A DNA stretch of 64,000 nt from Escherichia coli (GTDB taxonomy: Bacteria > Pseudomonadota > Gammaproteobacteria > Enterobacterales > Enterobacteriaceae), in assembly GCF_003334305.1 (NCBI RefSeq), contig NZ_QOWS01000013.1; one strand, 5' to 3'. Made by a program: the position numbers and the translations under genes. Shown here piece by piece: positions 15,197-55,728 of the stretch (within the stretch, counting starts at the first letter, position 1; the number at the start of each line of letters is the position of its first letter). The notes beneath the pieces were generated by a model that made no database searches, was not told the DNA's origin, and saw nothing but the letters and a program-made list of their open reading frames with translations.

Positions 15197-15355
15197 ATTT
15201 TTTCAGGCCGGATATGGCGTTAACCGCCTGTCCGGCAAACCTGCCTGCAAGTCGAGCCTTGTCTGATTTATCAGCGAGGCTTTTTGCTTATTTATGCCAG
15301 CGCAACTTTGCTCTAAGATGTTTCGCTGGTTTATTAACTGATGATTGAAGATCCC

Positions 15356-23050: not shown

Positions 23051-23170
23051 AATCTCGCGCTAACAACCTGGAATCGAGCCGTCATACTACGGCGCAACGC
23101 CCTATAAAGTAAACGATGACCCTTCGGGAACTTCAGGGTAAAATGACTATCAAAATGTGAATTGTAGCTG

Positions 23171-23203
23171 ACCTGGGACTTGTACCCGGGTCGGTATTTT
23201 TTT
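23171..23203 (+). terminator. Terminator/attenuator hairpin in the greA leader (source of GraL short transcripts)
   Basis: Hairpin ACCTGGGACTTGTACCCGGGT followed by T7, about 95 nt upstream of the greA ATG. Confidence 0.5.
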
Positions 23204-29854: not shown

Positions 29855-29941
29855 GCCGAGGTGGTGGAATTGGTAGACACGCTACCTTGAGGTGGTAGTG
29901 CCCAATAGGGCTTACGGGTTCAAGTCCCGTCCTCGGTACCA
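29855..29941 (+). tRNA. leuU: tRNA-Leu (anticodon GAG), 87 nt, class II with long variable arm
   Basis: Sequence GCCGAGGTGGTGGAATTGGTAGACACGCTACCTTGAGGTGGTAG...GTCCTCGGTACCA with the anticodon loop CTTGAGG and an encoded CCA end. Confidence 0.95.
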
Positions 29942-33721: not shown

Positions 33722-33798
<77 letters not shown>

Positions 33799-33919
33799 CT
33801 TTCCCTTAGAGTCCTTTTTCAAATATACTGTGAAGACTTCGGCCTTCGTAGTGGGATTTGAAAAAATCCTTCTGGAAAGTGCTCCAGACCGCAGTTGCGG
33901 TTATAGGGTTCAGTTATAT

Positions 33920-33946
33920 AAAGCCCCGATTTATCGGGGTTTTTTG
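33920..33946 (+). terminator. Leader terminator/attenuator hairpin between metY and rimP
   Basis: Hairpin AGCCCCGATTTATCGGGGT followed by T6. Confidence 0.65.
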
Positions 33947-33967
33947 TTATCTGACTACAGAATAACT

Positions 33968-33987
33968 GGGCTTTAAGCCCTTTTTTT
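33968..33987 (+). terminator. Second hairpin with T tract immediately upstream of rimP
   Basis: GGGCTTTAAGCCC followed by T7; a tandem arrangement with the preceding hairpin. Confidence 0.45.
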
Positions 33988-35996: not shown

Positions 35997-38669
35997 ATGA
36001 CAGATGTAACGATTAAAACGCTGGCCGCAGAGCGACAGACCTCCGTGGAACGCCTGGTACAGCAATTTGCTGATGCAGGTATCCGGAAGTCTGCTGACGA
36101 CTCTGTGTCTGCACAAGAGAAACAGACTTTGATTGACCACCTGAATCAGAAAAATTCAGGCCCGGACAAATTGACGCTGCAACGTAAAACACGCAGCACC
36201 CTTAACATTCCTGGTACCGGTGGAAAAAGCAAATCGGTACAAATCGAAGTCCGCAAGAAACGCACCTTTGTGAAACGCGATCCGCAAGAGGCTGAACGCC
36301 TTGCAGCGGAAGAGCAAGCGCAGCGTGAAGCGGAAGAGCAAGCCCGTCGTGAGGCAGAAGAATCGGCTAAACGCGAGGCGCAACAAAAAGCTGAACGTGA
36401 GGCCGCAGAACAAGCTAAGCGTGAAGCTGCTGAACAAGCGAAACGTGAAGCTGCGGAAAAAGACAAAGTGAGCAATCAACAAGACGATATGACTAAAAAC
36501 GCCCAGGCTGAAAAAGCCCGCCGTGAGCAGGAAGCTGCAGAGCTCAAGCGTAAAGCTGAAGAAGAAGCGCGTCGTAAACTCGAAGAAGAAGCACGTCGCG
36601 TTGCTGAAGAAGCACGTCGTATGGCGGAAGAAAACAAATGGACTGATAACGCGGAACCGACTGAAGATTCCAGCGATTATCATGTCACAACTTCTCAACA
36701 TGCTCGCCAGGCAGAAGACGAAAGCGATCGTGAAGTCGAAGGCGGCCGTGGCCGTGGTCGTAACGCGAAAGCAGCGCGTCCGAAGAAAGGCAACAAACAC
36801 GCTGAATCAAAAGCTGATCGTGAAGAAGCACGCGCAGCAGTACGTGGCGGTAAAGGCGGAAAACGTAAAGGTTCTTCCCTGCAGCAAGGCTTCCAGAAGC
36901 CAGCTCAGGCCGTTAACCGTGACGTTGTGATCGGCGAAACCATCACCGTTGGCGAACTGGCGAACAAGATGGCGGTTAAAGGCTCTCAGGTCATCAAAGC
37001 GATGATGAAACTGGGCGCAATGGCAACCATCAACCAGGTTATCGATCAGGAAACCGCACAGCTGGTTGCTGAAGAGATGGGCCACAAAGTTATCCTGCGT
37101 CGTGAAAACGAGCTGGAAGAGGCGGTAATGAGCGACCGTGACACGGGGGCTGCGGCTGAACCGCGCGCGCCGGTTGTGACCATCATGGGTCACGTTGACC
37201 ACGGTAAAACCTCTCTGCTGGACTACATTCGTTCAACGAAAGTGGCCTCTGGCGAAGCGGGCGGCATTACCCAGCACATTGGTGCATACCACGTTGAAAC
37301 TGAAAACGGCATGATCACCTTCCTGGACACCCCGGGGCACGCCGCGTTTACTTCAATGCGTGCACGTGGTGCGCAGGCAACGGACATCGTAGTCCTGGTT
37401 GTTGCTGCCGACGACGGCGTGATGCCGCAGACCATCGAAGCAATCCAGCACGCGAAAGCGGCGCAGGTACCGGTGGTGGTTGCAGTGAACAAGATCGATA
37501 AACCAGAAGCCGATCCGGATCGTGTTAAGAACGAACTCTCCCAGTATGGCATCCTGCCGGAAGAGTGGGGCGGTGAAAGCCAGTTCGTACACGTATCTGC
37601 GAAAGCGGGTACCGGTATCGATGAACTGCTGGACGCTATCCTGCTGCAGGCGGAAGTTCTGGAGCTAAAAGCGGTACGTAAAGGTATGGCGAGCGGTGCG
37701 GTTATCGAATCCTTCCTCGATAAAGGTCGTGGTCCGGTTGCTACCGTTCTGGTACGTGAAGGTACTCTGCACAAGGGCGATATCGTTCTGTGTGGCTTCG
37801 AATACGGTCGTGTTCGTGCGATGCGTAACGAACTGGGTCAGGAAGTGCTGGAAGCGGGTCCGTCCATTCCGGTGGAAATCCTCGGCCTGTCCGGCGTACC
37901 GGCTGCGGGTGATGAAGTTACCGTTGTACGTGACGAGAAGAAAGCGCGTGAAGTTGCACTGTATCGTCAGGGTAAATTCCGCGAAGTTAAACTGGCGCGT
38001 CAGCAGAAATCTAAACTCGAGAACATGTTCGCCAACATGACCGAAGGCGAAGTTCACGAAGTGAACATCGTCCTGAAGGCAGACGTACAGGGTTCTGTGG
38101 AAGCGATCTCCGACTCCTTGCTGAAACTGTCTACTGACGAAGTTAAAGTGAAGATCATCGGTTCTGGCGTAGGTGGTATCACCGAAACCGACGCCACCCT
38201 GGCTGCGGCGTCCAACGCCATCCTGGTTGGCTTCAACGTACGTGCTGATGCCTCTGCACGTAAAGTGATTGAAGCGGAAAGCCTGGATCTGCGTTACTAC
38301 TCCGTCATCTATAACCTGATTGACGAAGTGAAAGCGGCGATGAGCGGTATGCTGTCTCCGGAACTGAAACAGCAGATTATCGGTCTGGCGGAAGTTCGTG
38401 ACGTGTTCAAATCGCCGAAATTTGGTGCCATCGCAGGCTGTATGGTTACCGAAGGTGTGGTTAAACGTCACAACCCGATCCGCGTTCTGCGTGACAACGT
38501 GGTTATCTACGAAGGCGAGCTGGAGTCCCTGCGCCGCTTCAAAGATGACGTTAACGAAGTCCGTAACGGTATGGAATGTGGTATCGGCGTTAAGAACTAC
38601 AACGACGTCCGCACTGGCGATGTGATCGAAGTATTCGAAATCATCGAGATCCAACGTACCATCGCTTAA
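35997..38669 (+). CDS. infB: Translation initiation factor IF-2, 890 aa (alpha form)
   Basis: G domain motifs GHVDHGKT and DTPGH; repetitive Ala/Glu/Lys/Arg-rich N-terminal region. Confidence 0.97.
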
Positions 38670-38679
38670 GGTTTTTAGG

Positions 38680-38758
38680 GTTCCATGCGGGATAAGGCGT
38701 TTATGCCGCATCCGGCATGGATTGCCTGATGTGACGCTGGCGCGTCTTATCAGGCCAA
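38680..38758. repeat. REP/BIME-like palindromic elements in the infB-rbfA spacer
   Basis: GCCTGATGTGACGCTGGCGCGTCTTATCAGGCC and CGGGATAAGGCGTTTATGCCGCATCCGGC, both typical REP palindromes. Confidence 0.6.
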
Positions 38759-38790
38759 CGTGAACAGCCCTTCCACCTGAAATTAATTTT

Positions 38791-38817
38791 AAAAAGGGGC
38801 TAACAGCCCCTTTTTTG
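38791..38817 (+). terminator. Hairpin with T tract upstream of rbfA
   Basis: AAAAAGGGGCTAACAGCCCCTTTTTT. Confidence 0.55.
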
Positions 38818-38832
38818 TCAGGAGAATTTATT

Positions 38833-39234
38833 ATGGCGAAAGAATTTGGTCGCCCGCAGCGCGTAGCGCAGGAAATGCAAAAAGAGATCGCTCTCATCCT
38901 GCAGCGTGAAATTAAAGATCCTCGCCTGGGCATGATGACCACCGTTTCCGGTGTCGAAATGTCTCGCGACCTGGCGTATGCCAAAGTATATGTGACGTTC
39001 CTCAACGACAAAGATGAAGACGCGGTTAAAGCGGGCATCAAAGCGTTGCAAGAAGCTTCTGGTTTCATCCGCAGCCTGCTGGGGAAAGCGATGCGCCTGC
39101 GTATCGTGCCGGAACTGACCTTCTTCTACGACAACTCTCTGGTTGAAGGGATGCGCATGTCAAACCTGGTGACCAGCGTGGTCAAACATGACGAAGAACG
39201 TCGTGTTAACCCGGACGACAGCAAGGAGGACTAA
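38833..39234 (+). CDS. rbfA: Ribosome-binding factor A RbfA, 133 aa
   Basis: Start at the internal Met [20 protein letters not shown]; ORF-track start at 38815 rejected. Confidence 0.94.
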
Positions 39235-40230: not shown

Positions 40231-40596
<366 letters not shown>

Positions 40597-40611: not shown

Positions 40612-40640
40612 GAAAAGGGGGCCTGAGTGGCCCCTTTTTT
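40612..40640 (+). terminator. rpsO rho-independent terminator
   Basis: Hairpin AAAAGGGGGCCTGAGTGGCCCC followed by T6. Confidence 0.75.
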
Positions 40641-40650
40641 CAAGCTGACG

Positions 40651-40824
40651 GCAGCAATTCACTGGAAACTAATGTATTGTTGCTATGAATGATCTTCCGT
40701 TGCAGAGGTTCGCGCGGCTAATGAGAGGCTTTACCCACATAGAGCTGGGTTAGGGTTGTCATTAGTCGCGAGGATGCGCAGAAGATCGGGTATTAACACC
40801 AGTGCCGTAAGGTACTGTCTAAGA
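40651..40824 (-). ncRNA. sraG: Possible SraG (PsrO) sRNA antisense in the rpsO-pnp spacer
   Basis: Placed from remembered K-12 position only; I cannot confirm the ends from sequence. Confidence 0.3.
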
Positions 40825-46194: not shown

Positions 46195-47439
46195 ATGGCA
46201 ACACTAACCACCACCCAAACGTCACCGTCGCTGCTTGGCGGCGTGGTGATTATCGGCGGCACCATTATTGGCGCAGGGATGTTTTCTCTGCCAGTGGTCA
46301 TGTCCGGGGCGTGGTTCTTCTGGTCAATGGCGGCGCTGATCTTCACCTGGTTCTGTATGCTGCATTCCGGCTTGATGATTCTGGAAGCTAACCTGAATTA
46401 CCGAATCGGTTCGAGTTTTGACACTATCACCAAAGATTTGCTGGGCAAAGGCTGGAACGTGGTCAACGGCATTTCCATTGCCTTTGTGCTCTATATCCTG
46501 ACCTATGCCTATATTTCTGCCAGTGGTTCAATTCTGCATCACACCTTCGCAGAGATGTCGCTAAACGTCCCGGCACGGGCGGCGGGTTTTGGTTTTGCAC
46601 TGCTGGTAGCGTTTGTGGTGTGGTTGAGTACTAAGGCCGTCAGCCGCATGACGGCGATTGTGCTGGGGGCGAAAGTCATTACCTTCTTCCTCACCTTTGG
46701 CAGCCTGTTGGGGCATGTGCAGCCTGCGACATTGTTCAACGTTGCAGAAAGCAATGCATCTTATGCGCCGTATCTGCTGATGACATTGCCGTTCTGCCTG
46801 GCGTCGTTTGGTTATCACGGTAACGTGCCAAGCCTGATGAAGTATTACGGCAAAGATCCGAAAACCATCGTGAAATGCCTGGTGTACGGTACGCTGATGG
46901 CACTGGCGCTGTATACCATCTGGTTGCTGGCGACGATGGGTAACATCCCGCGTCCGGAGTTTATCGGTATTGCAGAGAAGGGCGGTAATATTGATGTGCT
47001 GGTACAGGCATTAAGCGGCGTGCTGAACAGCCGTAGCCTGGACCTTCTGCTGGTCGTGTTCTCAAACTTTGCGGTAGCGAGTTCGTTCCTTGGCGTAACG
47101 CTGGGTTTGTTTGACTATCTGGCAGATCTGTTTGGTTTCGATGACTCAGCCCTGGGGCGCTTGAAAACGGCATTGCTGACCTTTGCCCCGCCTGTTGTGG
47201 GTGGTCTACTGTTCCCGAACGGATTCCTGTACGCCATTGGTTATGCTGGTTTAGCAGCTACCATCTGGGCGGCAATTGTTCCGGCGCTGTTAGCCCGCGC
47301 ATCGCGTAAACGCTTTGGCAGCCCGAAATTCCGCGTCTGGGGCGGCAAGCCGATGATTACGCTGATTCTGGTGTTTGGCGTTGGCAACGCACTGGTCCAT
47401 ATTTTATCGAGCTTTAATTTACTGCCGGTGTATCAGTAA
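46195..47439 (+). CDS. mtr: Tryptophan-specific permease Mtr, 414 aa
   Basis: HAAAP-family polytopic membrane protein; translation [22 protein letters not shown]. Confidence 0.95.
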
Positions 47440-47444
47440 TCAGC

Positions 47445-47545
47445 GGTGCCTTATCCGACATTTCTGCTGCCTACACAATGCCTGATGCGCTTCGCTTATC
47501 AGGTCTACGTAGGACAGCGTTGCCAGCTCGGATAAGGCTTCCCGC
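47445..47545. repeat. REP/BIME palindromic elements between mtr and yhbW
   Basis: TGCCTGATGCGCTTCGCTTATCAGGTCTAC and GCCTTATCCGAC...CGGATAAGGC REP-type palindromes. Confidence 0.6.
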
Positions 47546-47556
47546 GTTAAGACACA

Positions 47557-48564
47557 CTATCCCAACAACTCTTCCTTAACATCCATCGCCAGCTCAAACG
47601 AATGCAGCCGCGCCTGGTGGTCGAAAATCTGCCCGTTGACCATAATCTCATCGGCGTCGGTTTCGCGCAGGATCGACTGCAAGCCATGACGCACTTTCGC
47701 TTTATCACCTACCAACGACATACTCAGCGCCTGCTGCACACCATACTGTTCGGACGGCGACCAGAACTGATCCATATTTTGAATCGGTGGCGGCAGTTGC
47801 CCGGTTTCGCCACGGCGCAACTTCACAAAGGCTTGCTGCATTGAGGTAAACAGAAACTCAGCGTCGCGGTTGCTATCGGCGGCGATAATATTGATGCACA
47901 CCATCGCGTATGGTTTTTCCAGTCGTGCCGACGGTTTGAAGTTGCTGCGATAAAGATGCAGCGCCTGGAACAACATATCCGGCGCGAAGTGTGAGGCAAA
48001 CGCGAACGGCAGACCAAGCTGCGCCGCCAGTTGCGCGCTGTAAAGGCTGGAGCCTAACAACCACACGGGGATTTTCTCGCCATAGCCTGGTACCGGGCGC
48101 ACATGCGGATTGGGATCGCGGGCGTCAAACCAGTCCACCAGCTCCGCGACATCGCGGGGGAAATTATCAATATCGCCGCTCATATGGCGACGCAGCGCCA
48201 TCATTGTCCGTTGGTCACTACCTGGCGCACGACCCAGCCCCAAATCGATTCGCCCCGGATAGAGTGTATTGAGCGTGCCGAACTGTTCGGCAATGACCAA
48301 CGGTGAGTGGTTAGGCAACATCACGCCGCCAGACCCCAGATGCAGCGTGGTGGTATTCGCCGCCAGATAGCCAATCAATACCGACGTGGCAGCACTGGCA
48401 ATGCCAGTCATATTGTGGTGTTCTGCCAGCCAGTAGCGATGATAGCCGCGCTTTTCAGCCAGACGGGCGAGATCGAGAGAGTGGGAGAATGCTTCTCGCG
48501 CTGAAGAACCTTCGGGAATGGGGGCCAGATCGAGTAGCGAAAACGCAATGGTTTTATCAGTCAT
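47557..48564 (-). CDS. yhbW: Luciferase-like flavin-dependent monooxygenase-family protein YhbW, 335 aa
   Basis: LLM-class oxidoreductase-like translation [19 protein letters not shown]. Confidence 0.9.
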
Positions 48565-48769
48565 AACAGCTCACTTTGTTACCGATTAATCTTTAATACT
48601 GCATTAAAGAGTAGTTAAAGTTGTTAACAAAGTGAGCTGTGCTCTAAATAATTCGAGTTGCAGGAAGGCGACAAGAGAGTGAATCCCCAGGAGCTTACAT
48701 AAGTAAGTGACTGGGGTGAACGAATGCAGATGCAGCACATGCAACTTGAAGTATGACGAGCATATTTAC

Positions 48770-53998: not shown

Positions 53999-55039
53999 AT
54001 GACTGGTCAGTCTTCATCTCAGGCGGCAACGCCCATTCAGTGGTGGAAACCCGCGCTTTTCTTTCTCGTTGTCATTGCCGGTCTCTGGTATGTGAAATGG
54101 GAACCTTACTACGGCAAAGCGTTTACTGCTGCCGAAACCCACAGTATCGGTAAATCTATCCTTGCGCAGGCGGATGCTAACCCATGGCAGGCGGCGTTGG
54201 ATTACGCGATGATCTATTTCCTCGCGGTATGGAAAGCGGCGGTGCTGGGGGTGATCCTCGGTTCGTTGATTCAGGTGCTGATCCCGCGTGACTGGTTGTT
54301 GCGTACGCTTGGGCAATCGCGCTTTCGCAGCACGCTGCTGGGAACGCTGTTTTCGCTGCCGGGCATGATGTGTACCTGCTGTGCGGCTCCGGTCGCGGCG
54401 GGAATGCGTCGCCAACAGGTGTCGATGGGCGGTGCGCTGGCATTCTGGATGGGCAATCCGGTGTTAAACCCGGCGACGCTGGTGTTTATGGGGTTTGTCC
54501 TCGGCTGGGGTTTTGCGGCGATTCGTCTGGTGGCCGGGCTGGTGATGGTGTTGCTGATTGCGACGCTGGTGCAAAAATGGGTGCGTGAAACACCGCAAAC
54601 GCAGGCACCGGTCGAAATTGACATACCGGAAGCACAGGGCGGTTTTTTTAGCCGCTGGGGCAGGGCGCTATGGACGCTTTTCTGGAGTACGATCCCGGTT
54701 TACATCCTTGCAGTACTGGTGTTGGGTGCCGCTCGCGTCTGGTTATTCCCCCATGCCGATGGTGCTGTCGATAACAGCCTGATGTGGGTGGTGGCGATGG
54801 CGGTGGCAGGATGCTTGTTTGTCATTCCCACGGCAGCAGAAATTCCGATTGTACAAACGATGATGCTGGCAGGTATGGGAACCGCTCCGGCGCTGGCATT
54901 GTTGATGACGCTCCCGGCAGTGAGTTTGCCGTCACTGATTATGCTGCGCAAAGCGTTCCCGGCGAAAGCCTTATGGCTGACAGGGGCGATGGTGGCAGTG
55001 TCTGGTGTGATTGTCGGCGGGCTGGCGCTGTTGTTCTGA
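53999..55039 (+). CDS. yraQ: Predicted permease YraQ, 346 aa
   Basis: Polytopic membrane protein with CxxC motif (MMCTCCAAP). Confidence 0.88.
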   Translation: MTGQSSSQAATPIQWWKPALFFLVVIAGLWYVKWEPYYGKAFTAAETHSIGKSILAQADANPWQAALDYAMIYFLAVWKAAVLGVILGSLIQVLIPRDWLLRTLGQSRFRSTLLGTLFSLPGMMCTCCAAPVAAGMRRQQVSMGGALAFWMGNPVLNPATLVFMGFVLGWGFAAIRLVAGLVMVLLIATLVQKWVRETPQTQAPVEIDIPEAQGGFFSRWGRALWTLFWSTIPVYILAVLVLGAARVWLFPHADGAVDNSLMWVVAMAVAGCLFVIPTAAEIPIVQTMMLAGMGTAPALALLMTLPAVSLPSLIMLRKAFPAKALWLTGAMVAVSGVIVGGLALLF

Positions 55040-55054
55040 TTTGAGGGAAAACAT

Positions 55055-55140
55055 GTCGGATGCGGCGTAAACGCCTTATCCGATCTACGGTTTGCATCGT
55101 TGTATGCCTGATAAGACGCGGCAAGCGTCGCATCAGGCAT
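55055..55140. repeat. REP/BIME palindromic elements between yraQ and dolP
   Basis: GTCGGATGCGGCGTAAACGCCTTATCCGATCTAC and TGCCTGATAAGACGCGGCAAGCGTCGCATCAGGCA. Confidence 0.6.
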
Positions 55141-55152
55141 TACAAGGGGCTG

Positions 55153-55728
55153 CTATTTAATAAACGTAAACGCTGTGGTTACCCGCTTTACGCCGCTCAC
55201 CCGGCTGGCAATATCTGCCGCCGCTTTCGCTTCACGTTCAGTCACCAGCCCCATCAGGAACACTTCACCGTTTTCGGTGGTCACTTTCACGTTGGACGAT
55301 TTCACCAGGTCGCTGGTTAAGAGCTGCGAACGCACTTTGGTGGTGATCCACGTATCGTTAGATGCTTCGCCCAGACCAATCGGCTGGCCCTGACGAATCT
55401 CGTTATACACTTCGTTGGCACCGTCTACGCCCATAGCAATCTGTTTGGCGCGAGCCGAAAGTTCAGCGTTTGGTGACTGCCCAACCAGCAGCACTTTGCC
55501 CTGATACGCCGTGACATTAATACGGGTTTCTTTCTTAATCTGTTCGTCTTTCGACAATGCGCTGTTCACGCGCACTTCCAGGGTACCATCGTCCACCTGG
55601 GTGCCGACACTGCGTGGGTCAGTTGCGGCTTTGGTACCCACAGCAGCGGTACCCACTACGGCAGCGGCAACACAACCTTGCAACAGCAGCGCGGAAATAA
55701 GGACTGCGATTGGCGATAATGCCTTCAT
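55153..55728 (-). CDS. dolP: Dual BON-domain outer-membrane lipoprotein DolP (YraP), 191 aa
   Basis: Lipobox LLLQGC and two BON domains. Confidence 0.93.
   Translation of the reverse strand: MKALSPIAVLISALLLQGCVAAAVVGTAAVGTKAATDPRSVGTQVDDGTLEVRVNSALSKDEQIKKETRINVTAYQGKVLLVGQSPNAELSARAKQIAMGVDGANEVYNEIRQGQPIGLGEASNDTWITTKVRSQLLTSDLVKSSNVKVTTENGEVFLMGLVTEREAKAAADIASRVSGVKRVTTAFTFIK

Follow-up and report, generated by a model that had tools for sequence, protein, structure and literature searches.

Five copies of the REP family lie in three spacers of the 64-kb stretch of Escherichia coli DNA analysed here (64,000 nucleotides; hereafter the window). Between infB and rbfA (site 1) and between yraQ and dolP (site 3) they form BIME-2-type pairs of a Y and a Z2 REP, and between mtr and yhbW (site 2) there is a lone Z1. 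We give a probability of roughly nine in ten to this reading, in which the copies would act as hairpins that block exonucleases and the Y/Z2 pairs may be targets of gyrase. REPs such as these are already known, both in kind and in the E. coli genome, and the copies in the window are ordinary ones.

Five REP copies in three spacers

Site 1 occupies the 163-nt spacer between infB (+ strand, ending at 38669) and rbfA (+ strand, starting at 38833), two cistrons of one operon. Sites 2 and 3 both lie between convergent genes. The first of these spacers separates mtr (+ strand, ending at 47439) from yhbW (- strand, ending at 47557) by 117 nt, and the second separates yraQ (+ strand, ending at 55039) from dolP (- strand, ending at 55153) by 113 nt. 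No coding sequence was found in any of the three. A sequence-only reading of the same DNA had named these six genes as the neighbours of the repeats, and the names are confirmed by annotation and by the gene order of MG1655. Around infB-rbfA, 601 nt are 100% identical in many complete E. coli genomes in which infB and rbfA are so annotated. Gene order in the window is that of the MG1655 record, reversed, and runs nusA-infB-rbfA-truB-rpsO-pnp-nlpI-deaD-mtr, then yhbW ... yraQ, then dolP. The same five REP copies are present in the same three spacers of MG1655, near its coordinates 3313250-3313330, 3304475-3304570 and 3297035-3297085, and the RefSeq record of that strain contains no repeat_region features.

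Durrant et al. 2024 quote three E. coli REP sequences from earlier publications, and these served as references: Y (TGCCGGATGCGGCGTAAACGCCTTATCCGGCCTAC), a short Z (GCCTGATGCGCTACGCTTATCAGGCCTACG) and a long Z (GCCTGATGCGACGCTGGCGCGTCTTATCAGGCCTACG). As Qian et al. name the hairpins of naRNA, which stem from the tandem REP325, Y and Z2, and the Rfam consensus has the long form, the long Z corresponds to Z2 and the short Z therefore to Z1. The Y, Z1 and Z2 nomenclature is that of Stern 1984 and Gilson 1984 as summarised by Ton-Hoang et al. 2012 (PMC3333891). The whole window was scanned by edit distance on both strands, with 100 dinucleotide-preserving shuffles as the control. The scan yielded exactly five REPs, each 2-5 edits from a published sequence and all within the three spacers, and nothing else below 8 edits. 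The best distances reached by the shuffles were 8 (Y), 7 (Z1) and 9 (Z2) edits. A consensus search over the whole window, which the sequence-only reading had proposed as its own check, thus finds matches at all three of its sites, and its description of them as typical REP palindromes holds, with coordinates that are right to within a few bases. Identity of the five copies to the published Y, Z1 and Z2 is 86-94%. A Stern-type consensus applied with fixed spacing is too rigid a pattern and yielded no match even with as many as 3 mismatches allowed. The short REP tail motif on its own gave 5 matches against 1.05 expected and discriminates weakly.

At site 1 a Y-type REP on the - strand (38686-38717; 5/35 edits; inverted repeat I1) is placed head-to-head with a Z2-type REP on the + strand (38724-38760; 2/37 edits) across a 6-nt linker (38718-38723), making one BIME-2-type unit. 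Site 3 is also a single BIME-2 unit, in which a Y-type REP on the + strand (55054-55088; 3/35 edits; inverted repeat I2) and a Z2-type REP on the - strand (55102-55138; 4/37 edits; inverted repeat I1) lie tail-to-tail across a 13-nt linker (55089-55101). Site 2 has one Z1-type (short) REP on the + strand (47480-47509; 2/30 edits), with its CTAC foot intact, which forms the tip of a nested palindrome 103 nt long (47443-47545). The BIME-2 layout, Y and Z2 in opposite orientation with short linkers, is therefore found at sites 1 and 3 and not at site 2. Accordingly, the term 'clusters' used in the sequence-only reading suits the two Y+Z2 pairs but not 47445-47545, where one Z1 is accompanied by two degenerate arms that resemble half-REPs.

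These outer arms, to which no strand is assigned, pair with each other in the most stable fold computed for either strand (-50.6 and -50.9 kcal/mol, z -5.7) and are conserved in four E. coli alleles. The left arm (47443-47479) ends in CCTAC and includes GCCTTATCCGA, a sequence similar to the 3' half of a Y REP. The right arm (47510-47545) reads GTAGG...TCGGATAAGGC and resembles an inverted, degenerate Y half. No full-length REP match was returned for either by the edit-distance scan, and together they have the appearance of two 3' halves of Y REPs, inverted and interrupted.

The inverted repeats of the REPs are imperfect (82-88% complementary), and every REP fold contains an internal mismatch. 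Folds of the whole sites are far more stable than those of shuffled sequence, at -46 (site 1), -50.6 (site 2) and -45.5 kcal/mol (site 3) with z between -5.3 and -5.8; the Z2 hairpin of site 1 reaches -21.3 kcal/mol by itself (z -5.7 against shuffles). The 79-nt element of site 1 has a match in all 5426 of the 5426 complete E. coli genomes and occurs at no fewer than 40 places in essentially every chromosome. It is therefore part of a high-copy dispersed family, which excludes a single-copy reading.

The spacer between mlaB and ibaG contains a near-perfect palindrome at 15205-15240 (GGCCGGATATGGCGTTAACCGCCTGTCCGGC) that is Y REP-like at 8 edits, a distance that shuffles reach too. It scores 20.6 bits on the naRNA4 model (E 0.11), and could be a REP that degenerated long ago or a hairpin with no relation to REPs.

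Allelic variation and occupation by IS621

Site 1 occurs in 5421 of 5426 complete E. coli genomes (341-nt query) and has two allelic forms. The majority form, to which the window and MG1655 belong, combines a mutated GTAG foot with a compensated, longer Y stem. In the window allele this Y hairpin stem extends to 38682-38721, where 38682-38688 pairs with 38715-38721. The minority form makes up a band of 90-95% identity (637 records with the same 341-nt query). Both of the minority alleles examined (L002 and L003) have the canonical GTAGGCCGG, one of the two has GGCCTAC, and the linker differs. The two sides of the stem have both changed, which suggests conversion among copies of the REP. The unit is single in five of the five site 1 alleles that were examined.

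The site 3 query is covered to at least 80% in 4972 complete E. coli genomes, and the spacer varies between strains. Strain 09A22CPO026 carries two tandem Y+Z2 units, placed head-to-head across a 7-nt linker, where the window has one. Judged by its sequence, this tandem duplication is classic BIME-2 copy-number variation. The variants of the yraQ/dolP spacer were compared at L007 141-385 and L008 141-300. In another strain the REP is absent from this spacer and an unrelated G-rich palindrome (CCCCTCTCCCCTTTGGGGAGAGGGTTAGGGTGAGGGG) stands in its place, which we take to resemble a boxC repeat.

At site 2, the query is covered to at least 80% in 4837 complete E. coli genomes. In UID2309220033 (L011 111-1519) the mtr-yhbW REP structure is replaced by two extra genes, one hypothetical and one of the L,D-transpeptidase family, and yhbW is annotated as a pseudogene. 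The next spacer, between yhbW and ubiV, is also variable and contains in the window an insertion of ~127 bp relative to MG1655 (48640-48766). Within it lie GTGAATCCCCAGGAGCTTACAT, presumably the complement of ERIC1R, and AAGTAAGTGACTGGGGTGAACG, presumably the ERIC2 primer sequence with one mismatch. The insertion would be a strain-polymorphic ERIC/IRU repeat; the spacer is long in L005 and short in L006.

Differences between strains bear on the possibility that the REP pairs are still-active, non-autonomous mobile elements, namely REPIN-like doublets moved by a REP-associated transposase. TnpA(REP) acts on BIMEs and requires a REP with 5' GTAG and a stem that contains a mismatch (Ton-Hoang et al. 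2012, PMC3333891). The GTAG/CTAC foot is intact in the site 2 Z1 and the site 3 Y, where CTAC is kept, and the copy number of site 3 differs between strains. However, the foot tetranucleotide is mutated in the other three of the five REPs, to CAAC in the site 1 Z2, to ATAC in the site 3 Z2 and to CCAT in place of GTAG in the site 1 Y; both changes at site 1 are shared by MG1655, and the same loci have canonical feet in other E. coli alleles. The presence of site 1 in all but five of the genomes also points to an old, fixed insertion, and the window has no transposase gene. With three of five feet lost and site 1 near fixation, the REPs look like old, immobile and decaying copies, and we regard continued mobility as unlikely. 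The view of the sequence-only reading, that the repeats are not part of any mobile element here, is borne out in that the 64-kb window holds no transposase gene and the three REP spacers hold no insertion sequence. REPs as a family are substrates of the REP-associated Y1 transposase.

In other genomes the site 2 REP is interrupted by an insertion sequence. The mtr/yhbW REP is a recurrent natural attachment site, and a hotspot, of IS621. About 512 of the 5426 complete E. coli genomes (~9%) hold IS621 in this REP, counted where the junction probe is covered to at least 80%, and an annotated IS621-family transposase gene is present between mtr and yhbW in L005 and L006. The copy in L005 is 1279 bp long (3668-4946). 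The IS621 junctions read ...TTATCAGGTCT / tgtattatccc ... cagtatCT / ACGTAGG, which places the insertion point exactly after CT, at the window equivalent of 47506/47507, with CT on both sides. This junction agrees with the published behaviour of IS621 and with its natural target, ATCAGGCCTAC with a CT core (Durrant et al. 2024).

Site 2 is empty of IS621 in the window, and the Z1 there holds an IS621-type target, ATCAGGTCTAC, at 47498-47508 with the CT core at 47505-47506. Compared with the target ATC(A/G)GGCCTAC, this 11-mer has one mismatch, at position 7, and leaves CT intact. In the Z2 REPs of sites 1 and 3 the CT core of the target is broken, to CA and AT respectively. At least two allelic backgrounds, GGTCT and GGCCT (ATCAGGTCT and ATCAGGCCT), carry IS621 at this one point, and their right flanks differ too. 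The presence of IS621 in both suggests repeated insertion or recombination at a later time. A look-up in the IS621 insertion-site supplement gave no entry for these genes.

Probable role as RNA hairpins and possible gyrase sites

Transcription would place the REPs in the infB-rbfA intercistronic RNA and in the 3' UTRs of mtr/yhbW and yraQ/dolP. Their most likely role would be that of a stable RNA hairpin, at which the 3'-to-5' exonucleases PNPase and RNase II may be stopped, so that the 3' ends of the upstream messages would be both set and protected. At steady state many Rho-terminated transcripts end at REP hairpins, to which PNPase and RNase II trim them back, as stated in work that cites Newbury 1987 and Khemici and Carpousis 2004. 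Since no T-run follows them, the REP hairpins are considered barriers rather than intrinsic terminators. At sites 2 and 3 either strand folds, and one structure could therefore serve both of the convergent genes.

All three structures are predicted to begin close to the preceding stop codon. In the window allele of site 1 the stem starts 12 nt after the stop codon of infB, the outer stem of site 2 starts 3 nt after that of mtr, and the stem of site 3 starts 15 nt after that of yraQ. REPs within ~15 nt of a stop codon reportedly lower the translation of the upstream gene, a finding that is credited to Liang, Rudd and Deutscher in 2015. Site 1 is inside its operon and not at the end of it, and 3'-end protection at this position would concern a putative processed or terminated infB-proximal RNA.

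A second hairpin lies in the same spacer. At 38791-38822, ~30 nt past the BIME, a T-run follows a perfect 11-bp hairpin (AAAAAGGGGCT / AGCCCCTTTTT), and the rbfA start codon comes 11 nt later. The hairpin with its T-run looks like an operon-internal intrinsic terminator, possibly a bidirectional one; a simple terminator scan called nothing at site 1 and missed this hairpin and T-run too. The Y+Z2 pair and this terminator-like hairpin may jointly give rise to partial attenuation before rbfA and to a protected infB-proximal 3' end (Espeli et al. 2001, as cited in later work). A literature search on a REP or terminator in infB-rbfA returned nothing relevant.

As DNA, the Y/Z2 pairs of sites 1 and 3 are candidate gyrase sites, and binding of gyrase to both is plausible. 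Only some BIME-2 elements are enriched in gyrase cleavage in vivo, mostly those of multiple copies, and the cleavage falls mostly at Y REPs. Published supplements of gyrase sites (Topo-seq) and of RNA 3' ends (Term-seq) have no entry for these genes. The sequence-only reading had proposed mRNA stabilisation or gyrase binding for the three sites, and for these particular copies we infer both roles from the family to which they belong. Origin and spread of the REPs themselves would have depended on the REP-associated tyrosine transposase.

A more far-reaching proposal is that the infB-rbfA Y+Z2 pair may be processed into a stable, HU-binding, naRNA-like RNA and/or serve as a brake that sets the ratio of IF2 to RbfA. 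A smaller, second proposal is that the mtr/yhbW palindrome would be a preferred natural landing pad for IS621 despite the mismatch with the bridge-RNA loop at position 7. An operon-internal brake is conceivable because the site 1 stem starts only those 12 nt past the infB stop codon. We consider these proposals unlikely.

It is also improbable that site 1 constitutes a functional naRNA4-like small RNA gene, whose Y+Z2 product would be cut from the nusA-infB transcript, bind HU, bridge DNA cruciforms and condense the nucleoid. Rfam includes one REP-derived family, naRNA4 (RF02564), which was built on the Y+Z2 unit of REP325 (Qian et al.). It matches 38686-38756 on the + strand, sense to the operon, with 71.9 bits where the gathering threshold is 59.5, and the alignment pairs the site 1 Y with the first hairpin of the model and the Z2 with the second. 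Qian et al. also report that ~80% of REPs are transcribed and that the RNA needs two hairpins, Y and Z2. Yet the naRNA4 family is in essence a BIME-2 unit, so that a score is to be expected of every Y+Z2 pair joined by a short linker. Moreover, the described naRNAs derive from REP325, where six units stand in tandem at yjdM-yjdN, the linker of site 1 is 6 nt shorter than that of the model, and a discrete RNA from site 1 is purely putative. A look-up of locus-specific data on HU and naRNA gave nothing for these genes.

The other two sites behave differently towards the same model. At site 3 (- strand) the Y hairpin scores 32.4 bits and the Z2 hairpin 31.9 bits, and the site score of 32.9 is below the threshold; the tail-to-tail arrangement of the Y/Z2 pair prevents a fit to the model as a whole. 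Site 2 has no match to Rfam at all, as would be expected of a lone Z1. Elsewhere in the window Rfam gives seven matches at gathering level, all of which are expected for this region of E. coli. These are ArcZ (1475-1582, -), the greA leader (23081-23202, +), tRNAs at 29855-29938 (+) and 33722-33795 (+), the rimP leader (33887-33987, +), the S15 leader (40269-40383, +) and SraG (40613-40784, -).

The sequence-only reading had further named IHF as a possible ligand, which would make the sites IHF-binding BIME-1 (RIB/RIP) elements. This is very improbable. The Z1 REP of site 2 is indeed of the type found in BIME-1, but IHF binding belongs to the architecture of y, long L linker and z1 that defines BIME-1 (Ton-Hoang et al. 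2012, PMC3333891), and this Y-L-Z1 arrangement was found at none of the three sites. Site 2 is without an intact Y and an L linker, and sites 1 and 3 have Z2 REPs with linkers of 6 and 13 nt. In addition, the IHF consensus WATCAANNNNTTR has no match within 150 nt of any of the sites, and the assignment to IHF is not upheld.

That the palindromes are gene-specific transcription terminators with a chance likeness to REPs, as G+C-rich hairpins that all lie just downstream of stop codons might suggest, has next to no likelihood, given that the same sequences recur at least 40 times per genome, that a T-run follows none of them and that the terminator scan was silent at site 1, and it is ruled out by copy number together with the consensus match.

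Relation to known REP, BIME, naRNA and IS621 systems

The REPs of the window share with the E. coli REP, or palindromic unit, an imperfect palindrome of 30-37 nt with an internal mismatch, an extragenic position and high copy number. They differ in the mutated GTAG/CTAC foot of three of the five copies and in the variant Y of site 1 with its extended lower stem. Their significance goes little beyond correct annotation, as they are textbook elements of the most thoroughly studied bacterial genome. In comparison with the classic gyrase-cleaved BIME-2s, which are multi-unit, sites 1 and 3 are single units in the window. Site 2 has its Z1 in common with BIME-1, RIB and RIP elements but is not a member of that class, as it is without an intact Y, the L linker and the IHF consensus. 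The generic label 'IHF-binding' is hence unfit for Y/Z2 elements or for a lone Z1.

With regard to naRNA4, site 1 matches the model over both of its hairpins, on the transcribed strand and with a score that exceeds the gathering threshold. The source of that model, REP325, has six units at yjdM-yjdN, whereas site 1 has one unit with a shorter linker at infB-rbfA, and a discrete, HU-bound RNA from it would be putative. An automated Rfam pass will call site 1 a 'naRNA4 sRNA gene', although it is simply a BIME-2 unit.

Among the REP sites described for IS621, a bridge-RNA-guided member of the IS110 family, site 2 shares both the CT core and natural occupancy, and it differs at position 7. The mtr/yhbW REP is therefore a handy native example of target choice by bridge RNA, one that includes the mismatch at that position.
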